A DNA stretch of 64,000 nucleotides from a virus (lineage: Duplodnaviria; Heunggongvirae; Uroviricota; Caudoviricetes): the IMG/VR virus record IMGVR_UViG_3300032053_000007, one strand, 5' to 3'. The position numbers and the translations under genes are program-made. The notes below the pieces were generated by a model. It had not been told where the DNA came from. It saw nothing but the letters and a program-made list of their open reading frames with translations, and made no database searches. Numbering within the stretch: the stretch's first letter is position 1; each line of letters begins with the position of its first letter. This document shows, piece after piece, positions 15,911 through 51,907 of the stretch.

Positions 15911-16153
15911 ATGAGCGACAATCGTAAAACCCCATTCGGAAAACTCAACAGACGAGCAGAGCAAATTGCTGGTGATATTGATACAAAGAAGTTGGAAGAC
16001 GAGATTGGTGAGGCATTAGCAGATGCATGGCAAGCTGGCTATGACGAAGGATGCGGTACAGCACATGATGAGGGTTATCAGGAAGGAAAGGCAGAGGGCA
16101 TAAGGGAAGCCGAAGAGAAGTTTAAAGCCAAAGAGAAAGTGACGTTCACATGA
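15911..16153 (+). CDS. acidic small protein (...EKVTFT)
   Basis: Junction motif; ATGA. Confidence 0.5.
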   Translation: MSDNRKTPFGKLNRRAEQIAGDIDTKKLEDEIGEALADAWQAGYDEGCGTAHDEGYQEGKAEGIREAEEKFKAKEKVTFT

Positions 16154-16287
16154 TGAAGCCACCGAAAGAATGTTTTGTTTGTAGAGGAATTGGTTACGTG
16201 ATAGAAAGAAATCCAGACCCAAAAGGAGATAGATGGATTAGAGTTATGTGTAGAAGATGTAAAGGAGCGGGGTTTCTGAGAGAATGA
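16150..16287 (+). CDS. Zn-ribbon mini-protein (45 aa)
   Basis: CFVC...CRRC; ATGA at both ends. Confidence 0.45.
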   Translation: MMKPPKECFVCRGIGYVIERNPDPKGDRWIRVMCRRCKGAGFLRE

Positions 16288-16502
16288 TTCATTGTGAATG
16301 GAGAGGGTGTTCTAAGAAATCGGAATATGTTATCAATTGGAAAAACGAGCCTAGACCAATAATCATTGAACCTTTTGCGGACCATAACTTTCTTTGTGGA
16401 ACACACTTCAAAAAATTACAGCATGATTTTCCTGAGACAAAACAGAAACCTATAGAAATCTATGAACTTACAGACCCAGTTATAAAGGTGACATTTACTT
16501 GA
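16284..16502 (+). CDS. small C/H-rich protein (...KVTFT)
   Basis: Junction motif; TTGA. Confidence 0.5.
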   Translation: MIHCEWRGCSKKSEYVINWKNEPRPIIIEPFADHNFLCGTHFKKLQHDFPETKQKPIEIYELTDPVIKVTFT

Positions 16503-16735
16503 ACTTTGACAAAATAAGGGCTGGCGACATTGTAATGTTCGAGCGAGAAGGAAAAATGCTTCATGGCAGAGTGTCAGCTAAAGGTTATCGTTATGTTGTT
16601 AGACCATTTGTGAATACTGATGAGCCAATTCTTTTCATTAGAGTGATTGAACATCCAGAATGGAAGGAAATAACTTTGTCTAGTAAAGAAGTAAAAAATA
16701 TTATCACAATAGGAGAAGTAGTGCATTTCACATGA
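16499..16735 (+). CDS. small protein (...VVHFT)
   Basis: TTG start; junction motif. Confidence 0.5.
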   Translation: MNFDKIRAGDIVMFEREGKMLHGRVSAKGYRYVVRPFVNTDEPILFIRVIEHPEWKEITLSSKEVKNIITIGEVVHFT

Positions 16736-16833
16736 ACAGAAAAGATATAGACTATCCTCTCATCTTTAGACGACTTCGCTGGTTTAAACGACTTGCTAAA
16801 GAATATCAGAAAGAAAAGGTGCAGTTCACATGA
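16732..16833 (+). CDS. 33-aa mini-protein (...EKVQFT)
   Basis: ATGA at both ends. Confidence 0.4.
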   Translation: MNRKDIDYPLIFRRLRWFKRLAKEYQKEKVQFT

Positions 16834-17102
16834 CAATCATACTTAAAAAGAACTTCAAGAAATGTCCTATGTGCGGCTCACGAAATTTAGCCCCTCATCT
16901 TCATAGCCAACATACTGAAAAGGAAGTACCGTGGGTTCGTTGCGAAGATTGTACGGCAATGTTTGTTAGAAGTTGTTCAAGTAATTCCCCAACAGAATCT
17001 ATTGTTATTTGGAATCGTAGAGGAAATGGCACTAAAATTGAGCCTGAAAGCACTAGCGTCTTTGTAACGCCAGAAGACCCAGAGGTTGTGCATTTTACAT
17101 GA
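16830..17102 (+). CDS. Zn-ribbon protein (...VVHFT); paralog of 19202
   Basis: CPMCGSRN...CEDC. Confidence 0.55.
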   Translation: MTIILKKNFKKCPMCGSRNLAPHLHSQHTEKEVPWVRCEDCTAMFVRSCSSNSPTESIVIWNRRGNGTKIEPESTSVFVTPEDPEVVHFT

Positions 17103-17347
17103 TTGGGTCAACTATTGCTAATATAAGAAAAGACGGACACACTAGATGTGTAGCAATGCATGGTCGGAGTGACCAATGCCCAAAAGAGGCAGAATTCTTA
17201 CTTTACTATAAAATACAAGGAAGAGTTAATGTTGAACCGTTTTGCGAAGATGACGCATATGAATTCTCAATGTATTTCTCGAATTATCTAGGGCTAAAAG
17301 TAATAATCGAAGAGATGAGACTTAAAGAGAGGGTACAATTTACATGA
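17099..17347 (+). CDS. small protein (...RVQFT); paralog of 18682
   Basis: Shared AYEFSMYFSNYLGLKV segment. Confidence 0.55.
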   Translation: MIGSTIANIRKDGHTRCVAMHGRSDQCPKEAEFLLYYKIQGRVNVEPFCEDDAYEFSMYFSNYLGLKVIIEEMRLKERVQFT

Positions 17348-17595
17348 TGAAGAGACCATGTGACAAGTGCAATAATATGTCTGATGCGTTAGTAAGAGTA
17401 CATCCAATTGATAAAAATGGACAAAATTTGGAAACTGTTTATCTTTGCCCAAATTGTCGTGCGGCGTGGGGAAAAGTTTATGATAAGGAAGTAAAGAATG
17501 TTGATTCTATTAAATTCCAAAGTGCGTGGACTAATTCTTGGGAAAACTTTATGAGTGGGAAATATGAAGAACGAGAAGTGGTGCAGTTTACATGA
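17344..17595 (+). CDS. Zn-ribbon protein (...VVQFT)
   Basis: CDKC...CPNC. Confidence 0.55.
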   Translation: MMKRPCDKCNNMSDALVRVHPIDKNGQNLETVYLCPNCRAAWGKVYDKEVKNVDSIKFQSAWTNSWENFMSGKYEEREVVQFT

Positions 17596-17774
17596 GTGCT
17601 GAACCAGTTCTTTTAACGCATCCTTCTAAACTGAACGTTAAATGGAGTATTTCGGGATGCACAGTACATAATTCGCTTAACAAAGAATATTGCATAAAAT
17701 CTTGCAGAATAAGAGAACATTGTACGGTTTATGTGTCAATTATGAATGAACGGGAGAAGGTTCAATTCACATGA
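17592..17774 (+). CDS. small Cys-containing protein (...KVQFT)
   Basis: Junction motif. Confidence 0.5.
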   Translation: MSAEPVLLTHPSKLNVKWSISGCTVHNSLNKEYCIKSCRIREHCTVYVSIMNEREKVQFT

Positions 17775-17998
17775 AACAACTCAAAGTTTTGCATTATGAT
17801 AAAGATTGTGGTTTGGTTCGTTTGACTACGCGAGAACATAGGTCTATACATTCTAATATTTGTTTCGGTTGTGGATATAATGGAGCAATAAAATGGAATT
17901 CTTATAACAAAGTTGTTCAATGTCACAATTGCGGACAGATAATAGCTAAACCAGAAAGTCATCCAGAATTAGAACGAGAGGTAGTGCAATTTACATGA
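17771..17998 (+). CDS. Zn-ribbon protein (...VVQFT)
   Basis: CFGCGY...CHNCGQ. Confidence 0.55.
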   Translation: MKQLKVLHYDKDCGLVRLTTREHRSIHSNICFGCGYNGAIKWNSYNKVVQCHNCGQIIAKPESHPELEREVVQFT

Positions 17999-18210
17999 CT
18001 GAACTACTAATTATTGGAATGATAAGTACAATTTGTGGTCTAATTATTGCAATGGTATTAGAGGCAAAAAGACAAAAACGCAAAATGATAAAAAGAGTAA
18101 GAATATATATCAAAGACCGTAATAAAACTTTACGTCTTTCAAAATGGAAAAGAATTGCTACTGAATGGAGAGAAGAATTAAAGAGACCTGTAAAGGTGAA
18201 GTTTACATGA
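17995..18210 (+). CDS. small membrane protein (...VKVKFT)
   Basis: N-terminal TM helix. Confidence 0.5.
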   Translation: MTELLIIGMISTICGLIIAMVLEAKRQKRKMIKRVRIYIKDRNKTLRLSKWKRIATEWREELKRPVKVKFT

Positions 18211-18560
18211 GCAAATTTTTACGGGCATATCTAGTTCAGGGTAACAAGAAATATGAGGGGATTTCATCAGTCGATATGACAGTAAAAGTGAATGGTGGCG
18301 ACATTTGGGAAATCGAACTTAAAATAGATAACGCACAGAAATTATGTAAAGATTGTGATAATAACAAAATGTTCAGGCTTCATATAGAAAGTACATCAAT
18401 GAAGGATTCAAAACCAATGATTGAAACTACTACAGGGGAAATACTAATAACTGAGATTGAATTTTTATCACAAACTCAATGTCGTGTAAATGGAATCGCA
18501 TCTAATATACGTTGGGCTTCCAGAGAAGGAATCACTAGAGAAAAGGTGCAATTTACGTGA
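18207..18560 (+). CDS. small protein (117 aa, ...EKVQFT)
   Basis: ATG in ATGA overlap (track ORF 18165-18560). Confidence 0.5.
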   Translation: MSKFLRAYLVQGNKKYEGISSVDMTVKVNGGDIWEIELKIDNAQKLCKDCDNNKMFRLHIESTSMKDSKPMIETTTGEILITEIEFLSQTQCRVNGIASNIRWASREGITREKVQFT

Positions 18561-18685
18561 AGTCAAAGTTATTTGATAATTGGGATACAGAAATTCAATA
18601 CAAAGCTAGAGTAATAGATTGGATGCTTGTTGTTGCAATTTGGAGACAGAACAAACACAGAAGGGAAAAGGTGCAGTTTACTTGA
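18557..18685 (+). CDS. 42-aa mini-protein (GTG start, ...EKVQFT)
   Basis: GTGA and TTGA overlaps. Confidence 0.35.
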   Translation: MKSKLFDNWDTEIQYKARVIDWMLVVAIWRQNKHRREKVQFT

Positions 18686-18930
18686 ATGGTCGTGTTTTAA
18701 CCTGTTGTCTCGCGGTTGATTGTAGAAAAGAATCAGAGATTATTTTGTCATACAAAATGGTGCGAAGCGAAGGGAGCACTCGTGAATTTGCTACAAAAAT
18801 AACACATATATGCCACGATGAATTTTGTGAAGAACATGCTTATGAGTTCGGTATGTATTTTTCAAATTACTTAGGACTAAAAGTAAGAACAAAGAGAATA
18901 AATAGACCAGTAAAGGTGCAGTTTACATGA
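18682..18930 (+). CDS. small protein (...VKVQFT); paralog of 17099
   Basis: TTG start (track ORF 18619-18930). Confidence 0.5.
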   Translation: MNGRVLTCCLAVDCRKESEIILSYKMVRSEGSTREFATKITHICHDEFCEEHAYEFGMYFSNYLGLKVRTKRINRPVKVQFT

Positions 18931-19157
18931 AACGATGGTATCATAAAAAGTGTTGTTATTGCCATTGCAGTTTTATGTGTCACGGAGAATGTGGAATAGA
19001 ACTTAAAGCTAAACAAGAAACTGCTTGCTATTGTGGGGCTTGCATTCAAGAATTTGAGAGAGAGAAGGGTGGCAGAGAAATTGTCTCTGGAAAAGAGCGT
19101 TGTAGAAGTAGAATGGATTTTGGAATTGATGCAAAGGAGAAGGTGGAATTCACATAG
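18927..19157 (+). CDS. Cys-rich protein (...KVEFT, TAG stop)
   Basis: CCYCHC...CYCGAC; junction mutated to ACATAG. Confidence 0.5.
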   Translation: MKRWYHKKCCYCHCSFMCHGECGIELKAKQETACYCGACIQEFEREKGGREIVSGKERCRSRMDFGIDAKEKVEFT

Positions 19158-19201: not shown

Positions 19202-19405
19202 ATGTGCCATTCACGAAATATAGAAAAGAAAGAAGTATGTATGGAATGTAAAGATTGTCATGCTCAGTTTGTTCGAAGAGTACATCTTTTCGACAAAGAA
19301 TCATTGACGTGTATTTGGAATAGAAAAACAGATGGGACATATTTTGAGCATAGCAACAAAGTTTTTATAGTACCAGAGGACCCAGAGGTAGTGCAGTTCA
19401 CATGA
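19202..19405 (+). CDS. Zn-ribbon protein (...VVQFT); paralog of 16830 with lost coupled start
   Basis: Homology continues upstream in frame to 19154 with no start codon. Confidence 0.45.
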   Translation: MCHSRNIEKKEVCMECKDCHAQFVRRVHLFDKESLTCIWNRKTDGTYFEHSNKVFIVPEDPEVVQFT

Positions 19406-19692
19406 CTGTTTGGATTTGTCCGTTCTGTAAAAGTGAACTGATATTTACTGGAAAACGAAATGGCATAGGTTGGTTTGGAGATTTAGGCGCGAGTTTCTAT
19501 GCTTGTGAGTGCGGGCACAATATTATTAGCGAGGCATTCAAAAATGAAGATGGGACTCCAAAGATTTTCTATGATAATAAATGGGAACATCTTCTTAATG
19601 ACAAATGGAGATTTTATGATGAAAGGGATATGTGGGGAACGCCTAAAGATGTGCCGAAAGAATTAAAGAGAATAAAGGTGCAGTTTACTTGA
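19402..19692 (+). CDS. Zn-ribbon protein (...IKVQFT)
   Basis: CPFCKSE...CECGHN. Confidence 0.55.
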   Translation: MTVWICPFCKSELIFTGKRNGIGWFGDLGASFYACECGHNIISEAFKNEDGTPKIFYDNKWEHLLNDKWRFYDERDMWGTPKDVPKELKRIKVQFT

Positions 19693-19868
19693 CTGAATAT
19701 AAATGTACTTGTTGCACACTTACCAAAGGATGCATATTACGGACTAACAAACATGGAGAAATTTTTTGCACTCATGGTGGTAAAAGTATCAAAATTCCAA
19801 TTGAAAGGGAAATAAAACGTGGGGATTTAAAAGTGATAATACCGAGAGAGGTAGTGCAATTCACATGA
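19689..19868 (+). CDS. Cys-rich mini-protein (58 aa, ...VVQFT)
   Basis: TTGA and ATGA overlaps. Confidence 0.4.
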   Translation: MTEYKCTCCTLTKGCILRTNKHGEIFCTHGGKSIKIPIEREIKRGDLKVIIPREVVQFT

Positions 19869-20104
19869 GAGCTAATTGGCTTAAAGGTAGAAAATGTGAC
19901 CGTTGTGGAAAAGAATCTGAATTGGTTTTAGGCAAATTTGAACATTTTCTTTGCAGAGAATGTAGTACAGAATGGGGTAATTTTATACAACCATTTCTTT
20001 CCAAACTTCATGATGTAGCGAGAACTCCTAAATGGTCTGAATTATGGGAAAAAATTTACGCCAAGTTTTTGGCTGAATGGATAGAGAAGGTACAATTCAC
20101 TTGA
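19865..20104 (+). CDS. Zn-ribbon protein, CxxC...LCxxC..W..F family (...KVQFT)
   Basis: CDRCGKE...CREC. Confidence 0.55.
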   Translation: MRANWLKGRKCDRCGKESELVLGKFEHFLCRECSTEWGNFIQPFLSKLHDVARTPKWSELWEKIYAKFLAEWIEKVQFT

Positions 20105-20385
20105 CCGAAGAAATAAATCTTGAAAACCTCATTATTAAGGTGCGAAAAAGTACGCCTAAAAATCATAGACGAGCAAAAATTTGGGTTAAAAAAGGTTCGG
20201 CTAAAGTGGAGATTACTGACCAAGAAAAGTGGCTTAATGTAGAAGATATGTGTTGCGTTCTTAATCACGAGTTTCTTCATTGGATAATTACAAATATGAC
20301 AAAAACAAGACCTAAACAATATGACAAATACTTAGAGAGTCTTGGATTGTACTACCACGAAATATTAAGGGAAATATGGCAATAA
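20101..20385 (+). CDS. small HExxH motif protein
   Basis: TTG start in TTGA overlap; LNHEFLHWII. Confidence 0.45.
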   Translation: MTEEINLENLIIKVRKSTPKNHRRAKIWVKKGSAKVEITDQEKWLNVEDMCCVLNHEFLHWIITNMTKTRPKQYDKYLESLGLYYHEILREIWQ

Positions 20386-21392: not shown

Positions 21393-21430
21393 TGAGCATG
21401 GGAGTTCTTACTAAACCTTTATATAGGGGA
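21393..21430 (+). promoter_or_regulatory. conserved promoter module driving array 1b
   Basis: TTGAGCATGGGAGTTCTTACTAAACC-TTTATATA-GGGG. Confidence 0.5.
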
Positions 21431-22427: not shown

Positions 22428-22661
22428 ATGCCTAAGAAATTCTACGCGCGTTGTGGTTTGTGCAAGAAAAACTTTGCAACAAAGAGAGGCGTTGATACTC
22501 ATTTTAAAAGTGAAGAACATCTCAGACGACTTGCAAGATGGTATGAACTTTGTACGGAAGGTAAAGAAAAAGGATTCACTTATATTTTAGGAAACATGGA
22601 AGGAAGTGCAAAGGAAGTTCTTGCAGAAGAGGAACGTCCAGAAGTTGTTAGCTTTGACTAA
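22428..22661 (+). CDS. C2H2-like Zn-finger protein (...VVSFD)
   Basis: CGLCKKNF...HFKSEEH. Confidence 0.5.
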   Translation: MPKKFYARCGLCKKNFATKRGVDTHFKSEEHLRRLARWYELCTEGKEKGFTYILGNMEGSAKEVLAEEERPEVVSFD

Positions 22662-22893
22662 AAGAAACTGTGAGAAATGTGGACGAGTTTTCACGGTGAC
22701 AGAAGATAAACTAAAATATCCTCATTCTATAGACGCTATTCTTTGTGGTTCTTGTCTAAGAAAATGGCTAGAGTTTTTTGCTGACCATAATACATTTTTT
22801 GTTGCTAAATATCCTAAGAAAATAAACCCAACTTGGGAAGTATTTAAGGGGAAAATTGCAGACTATACTAGAGAGAAGGTTGTGTTCACTTGA
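22654..22893 (+). CDS. Zn-ribbon protein (...KVVFT)
   Basis: TTG start (track ORF 22606-22893); CEKCG...CGSC. Confidence 0.45.
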   Translation: MTKRNCEKCGRVFTVTEDKLKYPHSIDAILCGSCLRKWLEFFADHNTFFVAKYPKKINPTWEVFKGKIADYTREKVVFT

Positions 22894-23078
22894 CGACTTG
22901 GCAAATTGTTAAGTGTGACGTTTGCGGACGGTCTTATGAACAATACGGGGACGCTCACGATATTGGTGAACAAAACTTCTGCTGTGAACATTGCCTCTGG
23001 ACAGCAGTTAGTAATAGTGGAGAACCACAACCTAGACATACTTGCATAGAGGTAAAGGAAAAGGTGAACTTTACTTGA
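22890..23078 (+). CDS. Zn-ribbon protein (...KVNFT)
   Basis: CDVCG...CCEHC. Confidence 0.5.
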   Translation: MTTWQIVKCDVCGRSYEQYGDAHDIGEQNFCCEHCLWTAVSNSGEPQPRHTCIEVKEKVNFT

Positions 23079-23263
23079 GTGGTTTATCAATTAATCGTGG
23101 TTGCTTCAACTGTAAGAAATACAAAAATTGTCGTGGTTCCATAGATAGTGAAAAAGGAATAGACCCAAAAGAAATTCAGAAAGGTAGAAATAATATACCT
23201 TATCGTGCTGGCTGTTGTTGCCAAAATTACGAGTTTGTCAAAGAAAAGGTGCTGTTCACATGA
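23075..23263 (+). CDS. Cys-rich protein (...KVLFT); paralog of 46391
   Basis: GCFNC...GCCCQNYEF. Confidence 0.5.
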   Translation: MSGLSINRGCFNCKKYKNCRGSIDSEKGIDPKEIQKGRNNIPYRAGCCCQNYEFVKEKVLFT

Positions 23264-23535
23264 TTTGTGCTAAATGCGGAAAGGAAAACGGAAAAGCCAC
23301 GATGTTTAGGGAAACGGGGACAACCAACATTCTTAAACTAAATCCTGTATTTTATATTGGTGCTGATTGTGGTTGTTTTTGGAAGTGGTTGAAATTTCTT
23401 AAAGAGAAAGACCCAAATATCAAAATTGAAAAGAAAAGATGGGGCGCGTCTATAATATTTTCAAAGGGAATAGGTGAAGCAAACGAATTAGCCAAAGAGT
23501 TCGCGGACGATTTTGTGAAGGTGCAATTCACTTGA
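23260..23535 (+). CDS. Zn-binding protein (...VKVQFT)
   Basis: ATG in ATGA overlap; CAKCGKENGK. Confidence 0.5.
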   Translation: MICAKCGKENGKATMFRETGTTNILKLNPVFYIGADCGCFWKWLKFLKEKDPNIKIEKKRWGASIIFSKGIGEANELAKEFADDFVKVQFT

Positions 23536-23735
23536 AATGCCAAATTCCGATGTGCAATAAAGAAGCTGTAAAAGAAGTTCACGTTTACAAAAAGGTGAAC
23601 AGAGTAGAAATAATTTTTCTTTGTGAAGAACATTTTAAACAAGAAAATAAATGGCTCAGATATAAGAATATACAGCGAGAGATTTTCGACTTGAAACCTA
23701 AAGTGGATGATAGAATAAGGGTGCAATTTACTTGA
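23532..23735 (+). CDS. small protein (...RVQFT)
   Basis: TTG start; junction motif. Confidence 0.5.
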   Translation: MKCQIPMCNKEAVKEVHVYKKVNRVEIIFLCEEHFKQENKWLRYKNIQREIFDLKPKVDDRIRVQFT

Positions 23736-23968
23736 AACCGAAAAATAGACAAAACGTAAAATGTCCTAAATGTGGAAACGGATGGAATGAATGGGGATTT
23801 GCTTTTGAGCAAAAAGACATAAAATGGGTTCCGAACGGACATAAATTCTTAATGGGATATAAAGTTGTTGAAGGACACGACCCTTATCCTCTTAAAGTAA
23901 CTTGCAAGAAATGTGGTAAAGTTTTCAGAATAGAGTATGTTGATAAGGAAAAGGTCGAGTTCACTTGA
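23732..23968 (+). CDS. Zn-ribbon protein (...KVEFT)
   Basis: CPKCGN...CKKCGK. Confidence 0.55.
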   Translation: MKPKNRQNVKCPKCGNGWNEWGFAFEQKDIKWVPNGHKFLMGYKVVEGHDPYPLKVTCKKCGKVFRIEYVDKEKVEFT

Positions 23969-24288
23969 CTTACTATTGTCCCTTCTGCAAACAAAAAATG
24001 TTTCATCAACCGAACAACCAAAGCGTAACTCAAGACGAAAAACTGAAAGCCAAAGTTGGAGACACTTTCAAATGTAGTTGCAGTATTTTTCAAGAAGATT
24101 CAGACGGGCAAGTTTACCAACTAAATTCGTGGAAACTTGAAAATGATGGATGGTATCATTTCGGCTCAACAAACGGCAAACCAATTAGAGAACATTTTCA
24201 CATGCACAACGAAAATGAGTGGGTAAAAATTTGTGGCAGAACTAGCGAACCATTTGATACACTTCCAGAGGTTGTGAGTTTTACTTGA
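23965..24288 (+). CDS. Zn-binding protein (...VVSFT)
   Basis: CPFCKQ. Confidence 0.5.
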   Translation: MTYYCPFCKQKMFHQPNNQSVTQDEKLKAKVGDTFKCSCSIFQEDSDGQVYQLNSWKLENDGWYHFGSTNGKPIREHFHMHNENEWVKICGRTSEPFDTLPEVVSFT

Positions 24289-24443
24289 GCAAAAGAATCA
24301 CTATGAGTATAGACTACGCTGACATTCAGAAAGCCATAGAAATAATGGAGAAAGACGGGTTCTTGGTTGCTATTAGAGGAGATAAAATGATTGTCATGGG
24401 AAAACCAATAAAGGATACAAAGGAGAAGGTACAGTTTACATGA
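24285..24443 (+). CDS. 52-aa mini-protein (...EKVQFT)
   Basis: TTGA and ATGA overlaps. Confidence 0.4.
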   Translation: MSKRITMSIDYADIQKAIEIMEKDGFLVAIRGDKMIVMGKPIKDTKEKVQFT

Positions 24444-24580
24444 CCGAACTTCCAGAACATAAGTGCAAAGGTTGTCAAATGGATTGTTGGGGCAAAGAAT
24501 GGGACGATGAGAAGAAACAATATTTCTGTATAGCTGACGGATTTTATATTCAACAGAAAGAAAGAGTTGAGTTTACTTGA
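24440..24580 (+). CDS. 46-aa Cys mini-protein (...RVEFT)
   Basis: CKGC...C. Confidence 0.4.
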   Translation: MTELPEHKCKGCQMDCWGKEWDDEKKQYFCIADGFYIQQKERVEFT

Positions 24581-24870: not shown

Positions 24871-25013
24871 ATGCCAAAATCACTATGGCTTATACAGGAT
24901 TAACGTGTGACGGATGCGGAAGAAAACAGATTGTGGTAGTTCTTAAAGGAAGAAAGTGGCTTTGTTATGACTGTATGCACAAAATGGACGTGGAGAAAGT
25001 AACCTTTACTTGA
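24867..25013 (+). CDS. 48-aa Zn-ribbon mini-protein (...EKVTFT)
   Basis: CDGCG...CYDC; stop inside the TGAGCATGG module. Confidence 0.45.
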   Translation: MNAKITMAYTGLTCDGCGRKQIVVVLKGRKWLCYDCMHKMDVEKVTFT

Positions 25014-31213: not shown

Positions 31214-31215
31214 CC

Positions 31216-42714: not shown

Positions 42715-44442
42715 ATGACAAAGCAGAAACAAGCAAAGACGAACAACTTCTCTAAGATACTTGACGAGATGAGGAATCTTGCCATAGCAATTACGAAGGA
42801 CAAACGGATTCGTATCAAGTATATTCCAGAACAACCAACTTCTGCTTTCAATATGGAAAACTTTGAGATTTCTTTGAGTTTACAGAGTTATCCCGATTTC
42901 GTGAAAACATCGCCCCGTCTATTCCGAAAAATCCTAGACGGTGACATGGTTCACGAGTGCGGTCATCTGATTCTAACAAAACCGAATTGGGAATTTTTCA
43001 ACAATTGGACAACAAAAATCAAACGACAGAGAGGATTTTACAAGCTGGCTCACGAAGTTTGCAACATAGTTGAAGATAAGCGCGTGAATCATTTCATAAT
43101 TCTCAGATACAGGTTTGATGTCGGCAAGAGGCTACTTTTGGCGAATTTGATACTAAAAGACATGATAGACAACACAATTGAAAAGCCACAAATAGCCATG
43201 TCAACCATCTTACCGAAGGGCGAAAACTTAGGCGAAAACGAAATTCCAAACATGACAATTCAAGCTGGACAACAAGACGGGGTTTACATGGTTGCAATTT
43301 TGTGCAATGAAGGTCTATATGAGGCTAAATGCACAGAGTTATGGAACAAACTAAGCCCAGATGCTAGAAAGGACTGTGAAACAGCCCTTAAAGTGCTAGA
43401 GGGGACGAAATATCAACGTGTCAAACTCGACATAATAAGGTCTTGCCAAACGATTTATGAATTGGTAGCTAAACACTTGAACGCTGACTATACGACAAAG
43501 GAATATGTCGTTTCTAGAAGAGGGGGCAACGTAAAGGGCAAAATATCGGACAGACTTAGGCAATTACTAGAAAAAGAGGAAGAGCAAGAAAAGGCAGAAG
43601 AGGACAAGAAGAAACACCTAGAAGATTTGCAGAAAGGTTCGGGTGCTGGCGAAGGCACAGGCGAAGAGATTCCAGCCCCAGACCCAGATTTTGAGGCGTA
43701 TTCGAAACTTCTGGACGAATGCAAGCCTGAAATTTCCGAGCTATTGAATCAACTAAAGAAGAAAATGAAACCGAGAGTTCAACGGGACATTTTCCAGAAA
43801 CGCGGAAAAATGATGAGTCCAATTGTTCCACGCATCTACACAAACAGCTTTAGGGGAACCGTTCGCAATGTGTATCTGCGTACAACAACAAAATTTGAGA
43901 AGGAACAAGTCGCAATTCAATTTTGGTTCGATTTCTCAGGGTCAGTTAGTCGAATAGAGGCTGAAAAGATAACCACTATACTGAATGAGGTCTTTGGACA
44001 TTACGTTGACGATTACGGGTTCAGTATTGGGTGCTTTGGGGCAGATACCCAGAAAGTAAAGACTTTCTTTGAAACCTTCGAAAACACACGGGCAAGAATT
44101 GGAGCTATTTCGGTGAATGCTGGCGGTACTGAGGTTTCCGTTGGATTAGAGGCAAGCCTGAGAATGTTCAATACGATTAAAGGCGAACGCCGAAAGATTC
44201 TGGTCATTGCGTCCGATTTCTGCTTCTGTGGTGATGAAGAAACGAAAGCAGAGGAATTAATCGACCAATATGCGAAAGCTGGAATTGAATGTATCTTCAT
44301 AGGTTTCTGTGACTGTGAGAATGTAGAAACCTTCGCAAGCAAAGTGAAAAACTTGAAGTGCTCACGAACACGGATAAACCAAATATCCGAATTACCTCAG
44401 AGATTCCTAAACGTGTATCTAAACGTAGAAACCCAGAAGTGA
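42715..44442 (+). CDS. HExxH metallopeptidase-motif / von Willebrand factor A (vWA) fusion protein (575 aa)
   Basis: N-terminal MVHECGHLIL; acidic linker; C-terminal vWA MIDAS DFSGSVS...GGTEVS...IASDF. Confidence 0.6.
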   Translation: MTKQKQAKTNNFSKILDEMRNLAIAITKDKRIRIKYIPEQPTSAFNMENFEISLSLQSYPDFVKTSPRLFRKILDGDMVHECGHLILTKPNWEFFNNWTTKIKRQRGFYKLAHEVCNIVEDKRVNHFIILRYRFDVGKRLLLANLILKDMIDNTIEKPQIAMSTILPKGENLGENEIPNMTIQAGQQDGVYMVAILCNEGLYEAKCTELWNKLSPDARKDCETALKVLEGTKYQRVKLDIIRSCQTIYELVAKHLNADYTTKEYVVSRRGGNVKGKISDRLRQLLEKEEEQEKAEEDKKKHLEDLQKGSGAGEGTGEEIPAPDPDFEAYSKLLDECKPEISELLNQLKKKMKPRVQRDIFQKRGKMMSPIVPRIYTNSFRGTVRNVYLRTTTKFEKEQVAIQFWFDFSGSVSRIEAEKITTILNEVFGHYVDDYGFSIGCFGADTQKVKTFFETFENTRARIGAISVNAGGTEVSVGLEASLRMFNTIKGERRKILVIASDFCFCGDEETKAEELIDQYAKAGIECIFIGFCDCENVETFASKVKNLKCSRTRINQISELPQRFLNVYLNVETQK

Positions 44443-44619: not shown

Positions 44620-44847
44620 GTGAAATATAAAAGACATTGCACACATTGTAAGAACAATTTTTTCTGCAACGGAAAATGCAAAAGTGATAGACTTAAAAAT
44701 CCGAATGACTGTTATTGTCTTGAGTGTGTAAAAAAAGTTTCGGAAGAGTTTTCAAAGTTGTCTGGGGCAGACTCTACTTATGAATCTTTTAACGTTGTTC
44801 AATTTCATTGCCAAGAATCGGGCAGAGAAGAAGTGCAATTTACTTAA
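44620..44847 (+). CDS. Zn-ribbon protein, CxxCxxxFxC family (...EEVQFT, TAA)
   Basis: CTHCKNNFFCNGKC...CYCLEC. Confidence 0.5.
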   Translation: MKYKRHCTHCKNNFFCNGKCKSDRLKNPNDCYCLECVKKVSEEFSKLSGADSTYESFNVVQFHCQESGREEVQFT

Positions 44848-44985: not shown

Positions 44986-45873
44986 ATGAACTCAGAATTT
45001 GAAAAGATTCATGCAAAGGTCGAATCAGCACTTGAAGGTGCTGGCATCTACGTCAAAGGCATCGAGTTCGTGGACGAACATGGCTACATTGAAAAGTCAA
45101 GAGCGATTCTTGAAATTGTCGGCAACCTTAGATTAGTCGGCGAAACGGGGACGGGCAAAACAACTCTTGTTCACAAGTTGGCTGAATTGTTAGAGGTTCC
45201 GCTTTTTGAAATTGTCTTAACACGGGACGTGACAAAGTGGGATTTGCTGGCATGTGATACTCTGAAAGCTGGAAGCACAGAAACAAGAGATGGAATCATA
45301 ATTCAATGGTTGAACAGCGAGAAAGGTCTGCTTTACATAGACGGGTTCAACTATGCAGAACCATCGATAATTTCACTTCTGGAATCATTGGCAGACTTTA
45401 GGGGAAACGTGTATATTCCAGAATACAAGAAGCAATTCACACGGACAGCACAGCACTATCTCGTTATCAGCTATAACCCCTCAGAAAAATCGGGTTACTC
45501 TGGGACATTCATCGAGAACATTGCAACCATTAGACGATTTGAAGGTCTGATAATCGAATACCTTAGCCCCCAGAAAGAACGCGAATTGGTAAAGAAGTTC
45601 TCTGGAAACTATGACTTTTCTGCGAAGTTCGTAGAAATTGCCAAAAAGACGCGAACCGAATACGAGAACGGAAAACTTAGAACGCCCCTCACGACAGGCA
45701 ACCTAATAAACTACGGCAAACTCTACAAAGCGAAGATGTCCGAAGAGGACATAATCGATATAGCAAGTTCGCTTTACACCGCAAGAGAAGAGCGCAATTT
45801 ATTTAGGTCGTTCTTCGAAGATAGCTCTGAGATAGACGTAGAAAAGTTGAAAAAGAAAGAAGAGGATACCTAA
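44986..45873 (+). CDS. MoxR-family AAA+ ATPase
   Basis: Walker A GETGTGKTTL; Walker B/sensor LLYIDGFNYAEPSIISLLESL; 295 aa. Confidence 0.65.
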   Translation: MNSEFEKIHAKVESALEGAGIYVKGIEFVDEHGYIEKSRAILEIVGNLRLVGETGTGKTTLVHKLAELLEVPLFEIVLTRDVTKWDLLACDTLKAGSTETRDGIIIQWLNSEKGLLYIDGFNYAEPSIISLLESLADFRGNVYIPEYKKQFTRTAQHYLVISYNPSEKSGYSGTFIENIATIRRFEGLIIEYLSPQKERELVKKFSGNYDFSAKFVEIAKKTRTEYENGKLRTPLTTGNLINYGKLYKAKMSEEDIIDIASSLYTAREERNLFRSFFEDSSEIDVEKLKKKEEDT

Positions 45874-46390: not shown

Positions 46391-46606
46391 ATGACATATA
46401 TCGGGCAAGACGAAGAATTAACGATAGAGCGTGGTTGTTTTAATTGCGCTCGATTCAAAAAATGTCATCTTATTGAGGGACAAAGAAGAAATGGAATTAA
46501 TTTTATGGAGATTTTGAAGGACGGTGCGGAAGATTATCGTTATGGTTGTTGTTGCACAACTTATCTAGCAGAATCCGAAGCTAGAGAACAGGTGCAATTT
46601 ACTTGA
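46391..46606 (+). CDS. Cys-rich protein (...EQVQFT); paralog of 23075
   Basis: GCFNC...GCCCTTY. Confidence 0.5.
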   Translation: MTYIGQDEELTIERGCFNCARFKKCHLIEGQRRNGINFMEILKDGAEDYRYGCCCTTYLAESEAREQVQFT

Positions 46607-46890
46607 TTCAAAATTGTCCGTCTTGCGGTTCAATTCGCTTGACTCGAAAATGTCCGTCTTGTGGTTCTATTCTGGAAGAACAAAGTGGAACACTTTTTTT
46701 CACAGATAGTTTTTCACAACACGATAGACAAAAAATAAGGGAAACTCACTTTTTGCATTATTTTTGCGAAGTTTGTCGTAAAAATGATTTGCCTTTTGAC
46801 TTTTTATTTTTCAAAGGAAAACAATTCATTTATGATAAGGGCAGATGGAACCTCTTAGCTCCTGAGAGAGAATGTGTTCAATTCACCTAA
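46603..46890 (+). CDS. Zn-ribbon protein (...CVQFT, TAA)
   Basis: CPSCGS...CPSCGS duplicated knuckle. Confidence 0.5.
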   Translation: MIQNCPSCGSIRLTRKCPSCGSILEEQSGTLFFTDSFSQHDRQKIRETHFLHYFCEVCRKNDLPFDFLFFKGKQFIYDKGRWNLLAPERECVQFT

Positions 46891-47352: not shown

Positions 47353-47368
47353 TTAATCAAGTGATTAA
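47353..47368. promoter_or_regulatory. palindromic site TTAATCAAGTGATTAA between TATA and start codon
   Basis: Second site flanking the same promoter. Confidence 0.5.
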
Positions 47369-47369
47369 A

Positions 47370-48059
47370 ATGGCTGACCAAAAAACGACAAACAAACTCA
47401 TCATAGACGAAAAGGCTCTTGAATCGTTAGGACTACACGGCGAAACGATTTATACAATAGAGTATGACCTTTACAGCGAGAAATATCTGACGGACGCGGA
47501 AAAGAAAAAGTTGACAAAAGAACAACGGGACGCAAACACGCGATTCAACAAACTTGCGCGAATTTTCAGAAACGCAATTGTGTTCGCTCTGAAATTCAAG
47601 CTGGACGCTGTGAAACATCTCGAAAGCAGTTGGCTTCTGGACGGCGATAAGCTGGACTTAGCTGTTGCAGAAATTGAAGAGATAAAGGCAAAGGCAAAGA
47701 GCAAAGGATTTGAGGACATCGACAGACGCATAAAAATCATTCCGATTTTCACGACCCCAGAAGGATTCGAAAACTACAAAGACAAGAAAGCAGAGTTCAT
47801 TCTTAACTTCATAATGGAACACGTCAAGATGGCAGAGGACGGGTTAAAAGACAAACGCATGGCTCAGAGCACACTTTGGAGATGTCGAAAAGCAGTTGAG
47901 ATTTGCAATTCACACATCGAAAGCATGAAGGGACACGAGCGATATAACGAAATGTTAGACACCGTGAATATGCTGGACGAATTGAACGGGCAATGCGAAA
48001 GTTTTCTCTGTGACCAAAAGGCAGAAAAGGCAAAGAAGAACAAGAAAGAAGAGGACTGA
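47370..48059 (+). CDS. hypothetical coiled-coil protein (about 229 aa)
   Basis: Track ORF 47361-48059; ATG at 47370. Confidence 0.5.
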   Translation: MADQKTTNKLIIDEKALESLGLHGETIYTIEYDLYSEKYLTDAEKKKLTKEQRDANTRFNKLARIFRNAIVFALKFKLDAVKHLESSWLLDGDKLDLAVAEIEEIKAKAKSKGFEDIDRRIKIIPIFTTPEGFENYKDKKAEFILNFIMEHVKMAEDGLKDKRMAQSTLWRCRKAVEICNSHIESMKGHERYNEMLDTVNMLDELNGQCESFLCDQKAEKAKKNKKEED

Positions 48060-48490: not shown

Positions 48491-48648
48491 AAACTTTGAC
48501 AAAACAACCTTCGTGGACGGATAACCGAATTTTGACACGCAACGAAGTTAGACGGGGATTAGTAGAAAATTGGCTGAACGGTTGTGAATTTTCCGAAGCG
48601 TTTCTTAATTCAGACCTTTACAAACTAGAGAACAAGAGCGTGAAATAA
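48487..48648 (+). CDS. 53-aa mini-protein (GTG start)
   Basis: Hand-translated; TAATG overlap. Confidence 0.25.
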   Translation: MKTLTKQPSWTDNRILTRNEVRRGLVENWLNGCEFSEAFLNSDLYKLENKSVK

Positions 48649-48803
48649 TGTCTAAAAAGAAATTCTTAGTTACATACGAAGGGGACGACCCCCCGACATT
48701 GCTCGACATGAAAGACTGTCTGTTATCAAACGGAATGGACGAAGGGGGCATTCTCACAGTCGTAGAGGTCAAACGGACGAAGGAAAAGGTTGCATTTACA
48801 TGA
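48648..48803 (+). CDS. 51-aa mini-protein (...EKVAFT)
   Basis: Junction motif. Confidence 0.4.
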   Translation: MSKKKFLVTYEGDDPPTLLDMKDCLLSNGMDEGGILTVVEVKRTKEKVAFT

Positions 48804-49021
48804 ATCAAATAATAAAAGCTGGCGATTTTGTACGGTTGCTTAAATCAAATAATCCTTACGTTCCCGTAGGCACGATACTAGAAGTTGAATCAATTACAAA
48901 AAAAACCCCACTTGTTTTTACCGTGTGTGTGGTAAAACGAAAATGGTCAAAGTATTTCGTTCACGGTGACATAATTCGAAAGGTGAAATTCATGGTTCCT
49001 GAGAGGGTTGAATTTACATGA
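48800..49021 (+). CDS. small protein (...RVEFT)
   Basis: Junction motif. Confidence 0.5.
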   Translation: MNQIIKAGDFVRLLKSNNPYVPVGTILEVESITKKTPLVFTVCVVKRKWSKYFVHGDIIRKVKFMVPERVEFT

Positions 49022-49300: not shown

Positions 49301-49464
49301 TACGGGAAAACTTCATAGGATAAAGCGCAAACTCGCAAAACGCAAAGTCACGGGGGTCTGCCGTTGAACGTCCGAAAACTTAGACGTTTCTATTCAAGTC
49401 TGCCGACAGGCTCACATCACGGTCAACCGTTCGCACATGGCAAGTTTAGAGAGGGGTTGAAAGC

Positions 49465-49662
49465 GTGACGGATTTAAACTTAAAGGCTCTTCTGAAAAAT
49501 CACGATGTCCCTATTTGCATTGATGAGGCAGAATGTCCTCATAAGGTTCACAGAAAGAACCCCTATAAACCTCTATGCTTATTGCCTTTTCTTAACTATA
49601 AACATAAAGAATGCAAAGCGCAAAGATACCCAGACGCAAAGGAAAAGGTGAACTTTACATGA
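49465..49662 (+). CDS. Cys/His small protein (...EKVNFT)
   Basis: GTG start; CIDEAECPHKVH. Confidence 0.45.
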   Translation: MTDLNLKALLKNHDVPICIDEAECPHKVHRKNPYKPLCLLPFLNYKHKECKAQRYPDAKEKVNFT

Positions 49663-49952
49663 CGGGTAAATGGGTCTGGGATGGAACTAATTCGTGGAGA
49701 ATAGGAACCGAATTTCTTAGTTTAGACGTTTATGAAGATTGTGAAACTCATACTCCCAATGAATGTGAGTGCACAGAGATTTGGCTCAGAGATGATAAAA
49801 CAGGAAAATACGATACTGAGGGAATCTTTAACACTTATGAAGAGGCAAAAAGTCATGCTGAACAATTTATGAGAGAAAATCCGAATGGATGGCTTTTAAA
49901 GGACAGTTTAAAAACAGAATACGACAAAAGGGAAAAGGTGACGTTTACATGA
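49659..49952 (+). CDS. small acidic protein (...EKVTFT)
   Basis: ATG in ATGA overlap (track ORF 49611-49952). Confidence 0.5.
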   Translation: MTGKWVWDGTNSWRIGTEFLSLDVYEDCETHTPNECECTEIWLRDDKTGKYDTEGIFNTYEEAKSHAEQFMRENPNGWLLKDSLKTEYDKREKVTFT

Positions 49953-50068
49953 CTGACTGTGCTATAATAGTGTTCGACAAAGATACAGGAAAACTTAGAT
50001 GTTTCATTCATACGGCAGAGTTTAATCGCTGGCTAGACAGAAGAAAAGAACGGGTGATTTTCTCGTGA
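49949..50068 (+). CDS. 39-aa mini-protein
   Basis: ATGA and GTGA overlaps. Confidence 0.35.
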   Translation: MTDCAIIVFDKDTGKLRCFIHTAEFNRWLDRRKERVIFS

Positions 50069-50259
50069 CGTTTCAAGTTGGCGATAAGGCAAAGCTAAAA
50101 TACGCTGGCTTTAGGCATTGCCCCAAAGGTTCATTTGTTAAAATTACAAGAATTATGTCAAACAGAACCATTGATATAAGATATAAAACCGAAAGGTATG
50201 TTGTATCTGATACAGATTTAATCGAATTACAACAAAAGGAGAAGGTATGTTTCACATGA
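50065..50259 (+). CDS. small protein (...EKVCFT)
   Basis: GTG start. Confidence 0.45.
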   Translation: MTFQVGDKAKLKYAGFRHCPKGSFVKITRIMSNRTIDIRYKTERYVVSDTDLIELQQKEKVCFT

Positions 50260-50462
50260 CAACAATAGACGATAACGGTTATATCGAGTACGATTATGAG
50301 GATTTGTGTACGGAATGCAAGATGCACGATAAATGTCACGAAAACAGTATTGATTATGATGAAATTGATAAATGTTGTCAAGAACTTAATTCTCAAATGA
50401 AAGCGCGAGGAACCAAACTATATAAAACCCCAGAGCCAAAAGAGAAGGTGTTATTCACATGA
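50256..50462 (+). CDS. Cys-containing acidic protein (...EKVLFT)
   Basis: ATG in ATGA overlap. Confidence 0.5.
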   Translation: MTTIDDNGYIEYDYEDLCTECKMHDKCHENSIDYDEIDKCCQELNSQMKARGTKLYKTPEPKEKVLFT

Positions 50463-50605
50463 CGGGCGTTCTCGTTATACCGTGTTCAAAATGTGGCAGA
50501 CCTCTCAATATTCCCGTTAAAAACTATGCGGATGCAAAGAAGATAGGTTCAAGAATGTGTAAGCAATGCAACAACAAAGGAAGAGAAAAGGTCTGTTTCA
50601 CATGA
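50459..50605 (+). CDS. 48-aa Zn-ribbon mini-protein (...EKVCFT)
   Basis: CSKCGR...CKQC. Confidence 0.4.
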   Translation: MTGVLVIPCSKCGRPLNIPVKNYADAKKIGSRMCKQCNNKGREKVCFT

Positions 50606-50820
50606 TTTGTTCTAAATGTGGAAACGAGTTCAAACAACGAATTAACGAGAAATTATGCTTTAATTGTATGATGTACGAGCTAGACAGGCTCAGAGAGCAA
50701 GGCGAACGCATAGACAAGTTACTTTCCGATAACCCAGAGATAATGGAACTCTTAGACAAAATGAAGGCGCGAGAGATTATTAACCGTCTAAAGGGACGGG
50801 AAACGGTGACGTTCACATGA
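50602..50820 (+). CDS. Zn-ribbon protein (...TVTFT)
   Basis: CSKCGNE...CFNC (track ORF 50566-50820). Confidence 0.5.
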   Translation: MICSKCGNEFKQRINEKLCFNCMMYELDRLREQGERIDKLLSDNPEIMELLDKMKAREIINRLKGRETVTFT

Positions 50821-50996
50821 TTTGTAAAGTTTGTGGAAAGAGATTCACTTGCAATAATATATGTGATAGTTTGCATAAATTGAGCGCGAACGTGTGTTAT
50901 TGCAAACCATGTTCAATAGAAAGAGGATTCAAAGGCAATACCCTAAATGTTTGTTATAAAAAGGCTAACGAAAAAGAACAGGTCGAGTTCACATGA
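50817..50996 (+). CDS. Zn-ribbon protein, CxxCxxxFxC family (59 aa, ...QVEFT)
   Basis: CKVCGKRFTCNNIC...CYCKPC. Confidence 0.45.
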   Translation: MICKVCGKRFTCNNICDSLHKLSANVCYCKPCSIERGFKGNTLNVCYKKANEKEQVEFT

Positions 50997-51232
50997 TAAA
51001 TTCAAACCGTAAAAAGTGTTGTATTTGCGGTAAAAAAGGTTATGCAAATTATCACGATATACAGACTGAGGAAAAACTTTATCTTTGCGACTCACATGGT
51101 ATTTTGTGGGAAAAATCACAAGAACGACATGACTTCTTTCACGATAGAAGAGATAATACTTGGGAGTCTTTTTTCAAAAAGTGGCTATTAAAACGCAAAG
51201 TAACAACAAAAGAGAAGGTCAATTTCACTTGA
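50993..51232 (+). CDS. Zn-binding protein (...EKVNFT)
   Basis: CCICGKKG...CDSHG. Confidence 0.5.
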   Translation: MINSNRKKCCICGKKGYANYHDIQTEEKLYLCDSHGILWEKSQERHDFFHDRRDNTWESFFKKWLLKRKVTTKEKVNFT

Positions 51233-51456
51233 AAGAGAAAGGTTGCTTTAACTGTTCGAACAAGAGGAATCTCGACAAGATTTATTATAAATGCACAGAG
51301 ATGCGCTCACAACCTAACTTAACTGAACCGAACGGGAAAGCTACAGGATTTTTAAGGGACGTGAAAACTCCGTTAGGTAGTCCTAGACATTCTTATCGTT
51401 TAGGTTGTTCATGTGAGTATTGGAAGAGTGAACGGGAAACGGTTGAATTTACATGA
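51229..51456 (+). CDS. Cys-containing protein (...TVEFT)
   Basis: TTG start (track ORF 51160-51456); GCFNCSN...GCSCEY. Confidence 0.45.
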   Translation: MKEKGCFNCSNKRNLDKIYYKCTEMRSQPNLTEPNGKATGFLRDVKTPLGSPRHSYRLGCSCEYWKSERETVEFT

Positions 51457-51695
51457 CAAAATTTAAAGGACGTTGTAGAAAATGCAAAAGAATAGTTAGC
51501 GGTCAATTTCCAATTAAACTATTATTGGCTGTTCTCTGCGAAAGTTGTAACGAAGAATGGAAGAGATATTTTTCAAAAAGGTTTGACAAAGAACATGGGA
51601 CGCTTTTAGGTTTTCATACGCCCATTGAAGAATGGGAAAAGGAAAAGTGGTTTAAGGATTTTCTCAACAGCAAAGAGAAGGTAGAGTTTACATGA
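51453..51695 (+). CDS. Zn-ribbon protein, CxxC...LCxxC..W..F family (...EKVEFT)
   Basis: CRKCKR...CESCNEEWKRYF. Confidence 0.55.
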   Translation: MTKFKGRCRKCKRIVSGQFPIKLLLAVLCESCNEEWKRYFSKRFDKEHGTLLGFHTPIEEWEKEKWFKDFLNSKEKVEFT

Positions 51696-51907
51696 TTCAA
51701 CTAACAAAAACCGATTATAATATTTGTATTTCATCAATAAGCTATTATAGTTGCACTAATTGTTGGAAAAACAGCCTAAAAGTTTATCGTTTGAAAGGAA
51801 AAGTACAAGAAAGAGGAAAAATTGGCATAACTTTAACGTGGCTCTGCCCTGACTGTTTCGAAAAAATCATCAAAAAGAAAGACATAGAACAGGTTCAATT
51901 TACATAA
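51692..51907 (+). CDS. Zn-ribbon protein (...EQVQFT, TAA)
   Basis: CTNCW...CPDC; last gene of array 3. Confidence 0.5.
   Translation: MIQLTKTDYNICISSISYYSCTNCWKNSLKVYRLKGKVQERGKIGITLTWLCPDCFEKIIKKKDIEQVQFT

Follow-up and report, generated by a model that had tools for sequence, protein, structure and literature searches.

We describe a recurrent gene junction in the 64,000-nucleotide (nt) DNA of an uncultivated, probably archaeal virus (IMGVR_UViG_3300032053_000007; this whole stretch is called the window below), where about 84 small genes end in the codons of a shared C-terminal peptide, the tail, and the next gene mostly starts within the stop codon of the preceding one. Our analysis makes it likely that this junction packs three signals into ~21 nt, namely a protein tag, a signal for translational coupling and a cassette boundary, with the protein signal being the primary one.

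The degenerate 21-mer GARAAGGTGCARTTYACNTGA describing the junction matched the window exactly at 3 sites. With up to 3 mismatches it gave 63 matches, 60 on the plus strand and 3 on the minus strand (12552-12867), compared to none in 100 dinucleotide-preserving shuffles. At the peptide level, where we counted open frames of at least 35 codons ending in [VI]-x-F-[TDSN], the tail closed 81 of 416 plus-strand frames and 7 of 554 minus-strand frames, 3 of the latter 7 belonging to a real minus-strand operon; the total is thus ~84 tail-bearing genes, 81 on the plus and 3 on the minus strand. Their consensus was [KRP]-E-[KVRQT]-V-x-F-T, with Asp or Ser also found as the last residue. An earlier sequence-only reading of the window had announced about 90 genes ending in the same 21-nt junction. 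The recurrence, far above chance, was borne out, but the count was lower, and the junctions were not the same: the exact pattern is rare, and Gln (CAR) at residue −3 is only the commonest of more than 15 different amino acids. The 21-mer matches recovered the three arrays and the minus-strand sites at 12.55-12.87 kilobases (kb) reported there, as well as all of the sporadic sites (6001, 6147, 6323, 14391, 27457, 31040, 31465 and 33833).

The 81 plus-strand tails were followed by NTGA in 74 cases, TAA in 5 and TAG in 2, so that, contrary to the earlier claim, some stop codons do not overlap the next start. In a simple gene model used to define chains (79 tail genes of 33-126 amino acids (aa) upstream of 52 kb), a gene overlapping by −4 followed 65 of the 79 tail genes. 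The overlap was ATGA, TTGA or rarely GTGA, and because the successor overlaps by 4 nt, the frame steps by −1 at each such junction. The longest unbroken overlap chain comprised 17 cistrons (38068-41624), followed by chains of 15, 13, 12 and 11, well short of the ~35 cistrons per transcript suggested before. Two "mini-ORFs", putative leaders that the earlier reading took to contain little more than the motif, also have longer in-frame starts, at ATG 5875 (48 aa) and GTG 13089 (80 aa).

To locate the constraint, we compared amino-acid and synonymous change along the tail. The variable nucleotides of the element were the third codon positions (GAR, GTN, TTY, ACW) and the entire codon −3. Among 86 orthologue pairs of 45-97% identity, amino-acid identity was 0.64 in the gene body, 0.38 in the linker (−8, −9), 0.94 at −6, 0.59 at −5 and 0.40 at −3; the values of 1.00 at −4, 1.00 at −2 and 0.87 at −1 are inflated by pre-filtering of the target set on [VI].[FL][TDSN]$, which left the synonymous fractions unaffected. 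The fraction of synonymous differences was 0.35 in the gene body, 0.50 and 0.36 at −8 and −9, and 0.48, 0.47, 0.47, 0.57 and 0.40 at −6, −4, −3, −2 and −1, respectively. Within the tail, synonymous change was slowed only at the Lys codon −5 (0.27), which forms part of the Shine-Dalgarno (SD) sequence. When homologue detection was repeated without the tail filter, after cutting the last 8 residues from both proteins, 108 of 116 pairs retained V-x-F-[TDS], 8 carried the other clade's tail and none was tail-less. Orthologues frequently flipped between ACA and ACT at the last codon, exchanging ATG and TTG as the start of the successor. The motif E[KVRQTEI]V.F[TDS] occurred 69 times at the terminus and never internally in 18,828 residues. 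Constraint on the tail thus acts at the protein level. This result reverses the earlier claim that the peptide follows from a DNA signal, since the synonymous sites of the tail drift at or above the gene-body rate while its amino acids stay fixed, the tail survives where there is no overlap, and sister lineages keep a tail and alter its sequence. The spacer CARTTYAC is indeed conserved beyond the needs of an SD, as had been noted, because it encodes the x-Phe-Thr of the tag.

Codon usage revealed which positions are, in addition, selected as nucleotides. Lys −5 was AAG in 38 of 42 cases (90%, compared to a genome background of 30%; p = 3e-16) and Val −4 was GTG in 54% (background 12%; p = 2e-19); ACC and ACG were avoided for Thr −1, and the third positions of the Gln −3 and Lys −7 codons did not depart from the genomic background. 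By this comparison, selection at the nucleotide level acts on AAGGTG (AAG-GTG) and on the N of NTGA, and the remainder is selected as amino acids. No information content was found upstream of the heptapeptide codons. The window and its related contigs together gave a larger set of 318 non-identical junctions with a tail, of which the 270 with an overlapping start used GTG in 57% and had an AAG:AAA ratio of 165:8. The 33 junctions ending in TAA or TAG kept the peptide, with Val encoded by GTT (14), GTA (7), GTG (7) or GTC (5), and ACC appeared among them. The SD codon bias depends on the overlapping start and falls to background without one.

The exact 21-mer had no match in IMG/VR, a phage DNA collection gave no match, and a protein scan of IMG/VR for close relatives gave nothing; a profile alone found two uncultivated virus genomes (UViGs) there. 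The only array among GTDB genomes was on a contig of 1.9 kb that had been binned as Pacearchaeota; hits in Bacillus and Bathyarchaeota were rejected as single chance matches. A metagenome scan with the 21-mer yielded 31 loci, ~24 of which carry arrays with 1-4.5 tails per kb. Loci of other clades were fetched through a von Willebrand factor A (vWA) marker protein encoded in the window, moving outward by vWA identity. The tail is EKVxFT in the window and L005 (85-100% identity), E[KVI][VI]xF[TDS] in L001 (68%), EKV[LMI]LT in L043 (59%; Leu as TTR and CTN) and EK[VI]xFT in L044 and L048 (~51%). More distant loci showed K[VI][KR]VxL[IV] with overlaps present (L047, 50%), E[TI]F[VI]LS with all three stops and mostly no GGTG (L045, 42%) and [DE][KR][VIL]C, mostly with TAA or TAG (L046, 33%). 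All stops in L048 were TAA or TAG followed by a spacer, with no overlap and no AAG/GTG bias, and the same held for 4 of 7 in L044. The L045 tail used AGT, AGC, TCG, TCT and TCC for Ser and both codon families (CTN, TTR) for Leu. Antisense and minus-strand controls for the clade tails gave no matches in those loci.

These different tails sit on homologous proteins. The 95-aa protein encoded at 36760-37047 (EVVQFT) pairs with proteins of L001 (EIVKFD) and L045 (ETFILS), and a profile search of its family in 1.84 billion representatives found homologues ending in EKVEFT, EIVKFD, EIVSFT, KIKVELI and ETFVVS, together with three tail-less homologues whose sequence terminates where the domain does ("…IISLK"). 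One of the latter lies on a 161.6-kb contig (L056), where the genes of the fetched 20-kb stretch have no common tail. Tails are thus clade-specific on homologous proteins, and the clade survey together with the tail-less homologues indicates that the tail belongs to the genome, not to the protein family, and evolves in concert. A turnover comparison did not separate the two classes of genes, homologues being present for 59% of tail and 64% of non-tail genes.

Apart from the tail, the tagged proteins have little in common. With the last 8 residues removed, the 79 tail proteins fell into 60 BLAST clusters, the largest being a zinc-ribbon family of 13 members, besides 7 pairs; at least two CxxC-like pairs occur in 35 of the 79, and Pfam and PHROGs returned scattered zinc-ribbon matches, DUF7569 and one Lar restriction-alleviation protein. 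In this Lar protein of 90 residues, a complete Pfam domain spans 8-64, and linker plus tail take up the last 26 (65-90). AlphaFold2 models of two unrelated members with different folds had a predicted local distance difference test score (pLDDT) of 74-88 in the body of the first and 91-96 in that of the second; the last 15 residues of the first (pLDDT ~50) and the last 13 of the second (pLDDT 74) were modelled as flexible coil. Foldseek found no match to the 95-aa model in PDB. The tail is therefore a conserved short terminal peptide that follows a variable linker on otherwise unrelated proteins, as cargo and targeting peptides do. Its hydrophobic residues at −6, −4 and −2, free position −3 and strictly terminal location suggest a docking beta-strand read via the free carboxyl end. 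HbYX, PDZ class I/II and PIP-box readings were rejected, as the penultimate and last residues do not fit these motifs and vary by clade.

We propose that the ~84 small, mostly unrelated proteins of 33-130 aa, many of them zinc ribbons, carry an address tag read by one common receptor recognizing the free C-terminus, with which the virus could deal collectively with all of its small accessory proteins. Loading of cargo into the virion would be the first candidate purpose, ahead of timed turnover by proteolysis and of docking on one host hub. Each lineage would have its own tail on all its genes because the tag co-evolves with its reader. In the same nucleotides, AAG-GTG would act as an SD 8-9 nt before the ATG or TTG overlapping the Thr and stop codons (ACW-TGA), allowing the ribosome to restart along chains of up to 17 cistrons. 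Since all boundaries share a short in-frame sequence, recombination could swap, delete or insert whole genes without damage, and the arrays would be mosaic cassette stores. The existence and identity of the tag reader, actual termination-reinitiation and an archaeal host are what we infer from these patterns. A bolder version, to which we give somewhat less than an even chance, is proteome-wide addressing, in which a lineage tag on about half of the viral genes would direct dozens of fast-evolving small effectors to a single virus-encoded machine, for example for capsid loading and co-injection or for scheduled destruction, or else a ribosomal stop-and-restart peptide, a prokaryotic counterpart of 2A. 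In either case the tag codons would also bind the ribosome, provide the start codon and form an in-frame joint for recombination, amounting to a self-contained system of cassette capture and expression.

Conservation of the peptide at gene junctions could also mean that the tail works as a nascent chain inside the ribosome, in a 2A-like stop-and-restart that tunes release and holds the ribosome on the mRNA. Such a role would account for the peptide-level conservation, for its tight link to junctions and for the presence of the tail on all those unrelated proteins, and the next start is overlapping or a few nt away in every clade. We consider it improbable, however: tails are found on genes without a close successor (ends 25013 and 44847), the alternating hydrophobic pattern with a free −3 resembles a docking strand, the lineage-specific sequences fit poorly with a conserved exit tunnel, and we know of no precedent.

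The junctions are boundaries of gene exchange. L024 and the window share flanks of 98% and 96% identity; the cassettes enclosed by them have been permuted or replaced or are new, and each blastn block finishes at the stop codon of a junction. When all close relatives were taken together, 103 of 155 internal blastn block ends were located within −30 to +10 nt of a junction, compared to 17% expected, and 43 of 78 right-hand block ends lay 0-4 nt past the stop. Mosaic breakpoints are thus located at junctions, and genes are exchanged as cassettes. The permuted cassettes between near-identical flanks would suit a junction that is primarily a recombination site for cassette shuffling, integron-like or homology-facilitated, as the sequence-only reading had suggested among other options. 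We think this quite improbable as the primary function, because the conserved positions recur with a period of three and the conservation is one of amino acids, any pair of junctions shares just ~15-18 of 21 nt, and second-order selection for evolvability is weak. Neither an attC-like hairpin or symmetry nor inverted repeats were shared among 16 junctions ±40 nt, and Pfam or PHROGs detected no integrase or recombinase domain among 30 larger window ORFs. As the synonymous sites drift freely, cassette exchange appears to be a consequence of the shared junction, possibly a useful one, and not the force maintaining it.

An SD-like 4-mer preceded 54 of 62 starts following a tail, with a spacing of 8-9 nt in 44 of them, compared to only 37 of 97 other starts. 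The junction variants were AAGGTG or GAGGT, 8-9 nt from the start, confirming the SD that had been read before the overlapping start. The NTGA overlaps are co-directional and the SD lies in the 3′ end of the upstream gene, two features of −4 coupling; in Haloferax and in E. coli, experiments have shown termination-reinitiation at −4 overlaps with an intragenic SD (Huber et al. 2019, PMC6728339). Nevertheless, the motif does not appear to be needed for −4 coupling in the window genome, where 22 ATGA overlaps have no tail and several chains of 4-8 cistrons contain one tail or none.

This last finding bears on the view that obligatory termination-reinitiation, signalled in RNA or DNA by an SD, a conserved spacer and an overlapping start, is the main role of the 21-nt element and the peptide a by-product. 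Consistent with that view are the strong SD codon bias at a fixed spacing, the predominance of NTGA after the tails, the tolerance of TTG starts, which swap with ATG, and the long chains, together with an established coupling mechanism. As a primary cause it is nonetheless largely refuted and retains very little probability: the synonymous sites of the element are not conserved and residue −3 is free; tails persist with TAA or TAG stops and at operon ends; those of L045 and L046 are largely without overlaps, and those of L045 largely without GGTG; Ser and Leu of L045 come from disjoint codon families; and 22 overlaps and several chains of 4-8 cistrons in the same genome appear to couple without the motif. 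The SD, overlapping start and codon bias therefore fit the termination-reinitiation read earlier from the sequence, but not as the cause of the shared peptide. The suggestion of an RNA processing site found no support, as folding of 16 junctions ±40 nt gave z-scores of −1.3 to +1.7 and no shared structure. Also rejected were an alternative genetic code (TGA, TAA and TAG all terminate ordinary genes), a programmed −1 frameshift (the junction reads …TTY ACW TGA and not X XXY YYZ, with no slippery site) and a 2A-type polyprotein (a stop codon is always present). Least probable of all is one huge paralogous family with the C-terminus as its sole undiverged part: the zinc-ribbon family, the pairs and the homologous position of the tail across clades agree with it, but tail removal leaves 60 clusters, the Pfam matches, including the complete Lar domain, are to different families, the tail-less homologues end at a domain boundary and the two predicted folds differ.

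Several points weigh against our preferred reading of the tail as a protein tag. The tag reader is putative. A pair formed by a MoxR AAA+ ATPase and the HExxH-vWA protein is a reader candidate, yet a DUF2201_N metallopeptidase is encoded in the tail-less L056, and we therefore do not lean on this pair. To our knowledge, a packaging signal on ~84 different cargo proteins is without precedent, and Pfam and PHROGs recognized no capsid gene among the larger ORFs of the window. The host and the viral nature are read from promoter-like motifs, from archaeal DUF families and from a third-party viral classification, and the AlphaFold2 models come from shallow alignments of 7 and 17 sequences. Lys-Val, the most conserved dipeptide across clades, coincides with AAGGTG, so part of its cross-clade conservation could be SD-driven. 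Finally, selection for intact genes alone would also leave breakpoints at gene boundaries.

Table 1. Tail arrays, single tail genes and putative regulatory elements of the window.
Feature	Position	Strand	Remarks
Three tail cistrons	5875-6343	+	EKVTFT, EKVQFD, EKVKFD; first start ambiguous (5875 or 5974)
Mini-operon of three tail genes	12552-13089	−	VKVQFD, EKVEFT, TKVQFT; TTGA overlaps; leads into 89-aa gene 12286-12555
Lone tail gene	14247-14411	+	VKVQFD
15 overlapping cistrons, 14 with tail	15911-19157	+	Includes 18557-18685 (GTG start) and 18682-18930
Example junction	16813-16833	+	GAA AAG GTG CAG TTC ACA TGA = E-K-V-Q-F-T-stop; SD AAGGTG; ATG of next gene overlaps ACA TGA
Lar-like restriction-alleviation protein	16830-17102	+	Tail PEVVHFT
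Four tail cistrons	19202-20104	+	Followed by tail-less gene 20101-20385
12 tail cistrons	22428-25013	+	Chain of 11 from 22696
Terminal cistron of this array	24867-25013	+	Tail kept; only non-coding DNA and a TATA-like box downstream
Archaeal BRE/TATA-like box ACCTTTATATAGTA	25033-25046	+	Directly after an array
Lone tail gene	27244-27477	+	EKVQFT
Two tail genes	30836-31485	+	30836-31060, EKVMFT; 31216-31485, ERVQFT, without overlapping successor
Lone tail gene	33563-33853	+	EKVSFT; L001 homologue ends EKIQID
10 tail cistrons	35184-37047	+	Translationally chained to ATPase gene 34175-35041
95-aa tail protein	36760-37047	+	EVVQFT; test family for homologue tails
Longest chain, 17 overlapping cistrons	38068-41624	+	Every cistron with tail
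Tail gene between vWA and MoxR genes	44620-44847	+	EEVQFT-TAA; no overlap, no GGTG
Two tail genes	46391-46890	+	Second: ECVQFT, ACC-TAA; no SD, no start overlap
Two tail cistrons	48648-49021	+	
12 tail cistrons, last 12 of a 13-cistron overlap chain	49465-51907	+	Chain begins at tail-less 49364-49468; final tail cistron EQVQFT-TAA, no overlap
Palindrome TTAATCANNTGATTAA	5097, 15728, 20979, 21312, 25370, 25421, 28830, 31198, 33389, 33447, 41730, 42165, 42231, 42630, 44897, 47281, 47353, 49285, 52306, 52371, 55336, 55673, 55814, 58831		
BRE/TATA-like boxes	20933, 21417-21427, 25033, 42674, 52806, 53459, 55054, 56053, 57662, 59454-59493, 63572-63750		21417-21427 read from the sequence; tandem at 59446-59495 and 63574-63783

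The marker protein is the product of the largest ORF (42715-44442, 575 aa), with an invariant HExxH (H80, E81, H84) followed by a C-terminal vWA domain with a metal ion-dependent adhesion site (MIDAS); a sequence search of PDB matched its vWA domain only. A gene for a MoxR-type AAA_5 ATPase (44986-45873) lies nearby. The vWA protein had 77 homologues, every one of them metagenomic; their contigs came from peat and freshwater sediment, the longest measuring 147 kb. One is encoded on GenBank contig JAFMOA010002183.1, which is among the 5006 viral populations from Minnesota peat (PMC8626947), and two more are on the IMG/VR UViGs, so that we regard these elements as viral. Inteins with LAGLIDADG domains interrupt several vWA homologues. 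Together with boxes resembling the archaeal B recognition element and TATA box (BRE/TATA-like), GGTGA-type SDs and archaeal DUF families, these inteins point to a probable archaeal host.

A 232-aa protein (47361-48059) is conserved beside the vWA-MoxR pair in most clades sampled (L001, L043, L045 and L046; E-values 5e-104 to 4e-40); it has no detectable family, and a sequence search of PDB gave nothing. The 288-aa P-loop ATPase (34175-35041) is conserved in three clades and weakly matches the ATPase of the terminase large subunit. By motif reading only, the 89-aa minus-strand protein 12286-12555 is ParB/sulfiredoxin-like (…NGLKEPLRV…NGHHRY…). Pfam and PHROGs left most of the larger window ORFs without assignment and revealed no portal protein, and Rfam and tRNA scans of the window gave nothing. 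The tail-less L056 (contig Ga0373621_000028) has a much higher guanine-plus-cytosine (GC) content of 0.48, and at 4527-6684 DDE transposase genes and an RRXRR protein adjoin its DUF2201_N metallopeptidase gene.

The gaps between arrays, and other intergenic gaps, contain BRE/TATA-like boxes (ACCYTTATATA), which are putative limits of transcription units. The 16-bp palindrome TTAATCANNTGATTAA occurs at ~25 sites, compared to 0.17 expected from shuffles, and most of the sites checked against the gene model lie outside coding sequence, in gaps that border operons or arrays, some of them close to TATA-like boxes; a dimeric regulator may use it as an operator, or it may mark boundaries or act as a terminator. 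The stretch 52000-64000 is unlike the rest of the window, with a higher GC content (0.39-0.43), flat or negative GC skew, low coding density and many promoter-like boxes; no ORF tested there had a Pfam match. A 36-nt tandem repeat (2.3 copies, 46591-46672) begins inside the junction 46586-46606 and holds the junction-like string GGTTCAATTCGCTTGA, which was rejected as a junction and belongs to an internal CPSCGS zinc-knuckle duplication in the gene starting at 46603.

If a reader exists, the tag would make it possible to name, from sequence alone, all accessory or effector proteins of a large group of viruses in peat and sediment, and tag and receptor would form a portable pair. Triple coding (tag, ribosome-binding site with start, recombination joint) occurs at the junction in an unusually clean natural form, with layers that comparative genomics can separate. 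It also provides an experimental handle on long-range termination-reinitiation in archaeal-type translation, with chains of up to 17 cistrons, and a ready-made architecture for in-frame cassette exchange.

Encapsulin cargo-loading peptides and T4 capsid-targeting sequences are likewise short terminal peptides that follow a flexible linker on unrelated proteins; they are specific to the lineage of their container, as the lineage-specific tag may be to that of its putative reader. Encapsulins have few cargoes, compared to ~84 here, and the T4 signal is N-terminal whereas the tag is C-terminal. The T4 capsid-targeting sequence (CTS) is reviewed in PMC9026906. Neither signal resembles the tag in sequence, and no shell or capsid partner was recognized in the window. 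The ssrA tag is a C-terminal degron read by ClpXP and FtsH. Like our tail it is short and strictly C-terminal, and it is read via the free carboxyl end, as the tail may be; an AAA+ MoxR gene adjoins the HExxH-vWA gene here. However, ssrA is added by transfer-messenger RNA (tmRNA) whereas the tail is genome-encoded in each gene, a relative without tails likewise has the candidate pair, and the protease link is putative. RxLR, PEXEL and the C-terminal Dot/Icm signals place one short motif on a large, fast-evolving repertoire of unrelated effectors. They belong to cellular pathogens with known translocons; the present motif belongs to a virus, is at the extreme C-terminus and overlaps translation signals.

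Integron cassettes and the boundary sequences of mosaic phages are found in arrays of promoterless small genes exchanged at a conserved boundary. In contrast to integrons, the junction arrays have no attC hairpin and no integrase was found in the window, and their boundary is coding and conserved as protein. Calicivirus termination upstream ribosomal binding sites (TURBS) are structured RNAs 40-90 nt upstream that pair with 18S rRNA, and picornavirus 2A has no stop codon and ends in NPG|P. Both are viral devices that yield several proteins per mRNA at a conserved junction, as may be the case here; no TURBS was present at our junctions, each of which, unlike 2A, has a stop and a −1 frame change. 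The closest parallel in translation, −4 coupling (Huber et al. 2019, PMC6728339), shares the NTGA overlaps, the SD in the upstream 3′ end and a weak dependence on the start codon. The window differs in that the same SD codons recur at ~70 junctions, because they also encode the conserved peptide, and in its chains of up to 17 cistrons; here the coupling is predicted from sequence. Literature searches for similar arrays and for the virus group, and a full-text search for the tail peptide, returned nothing relevant. Taken together, one tag on about half of a virus's genes, concerted between lineages and triple-coded, appears in no report that we found, and the system behind it may well be new; for each of its components (translational coupling, terminal targeting peptides, cassette mosaicism) there are known examples.

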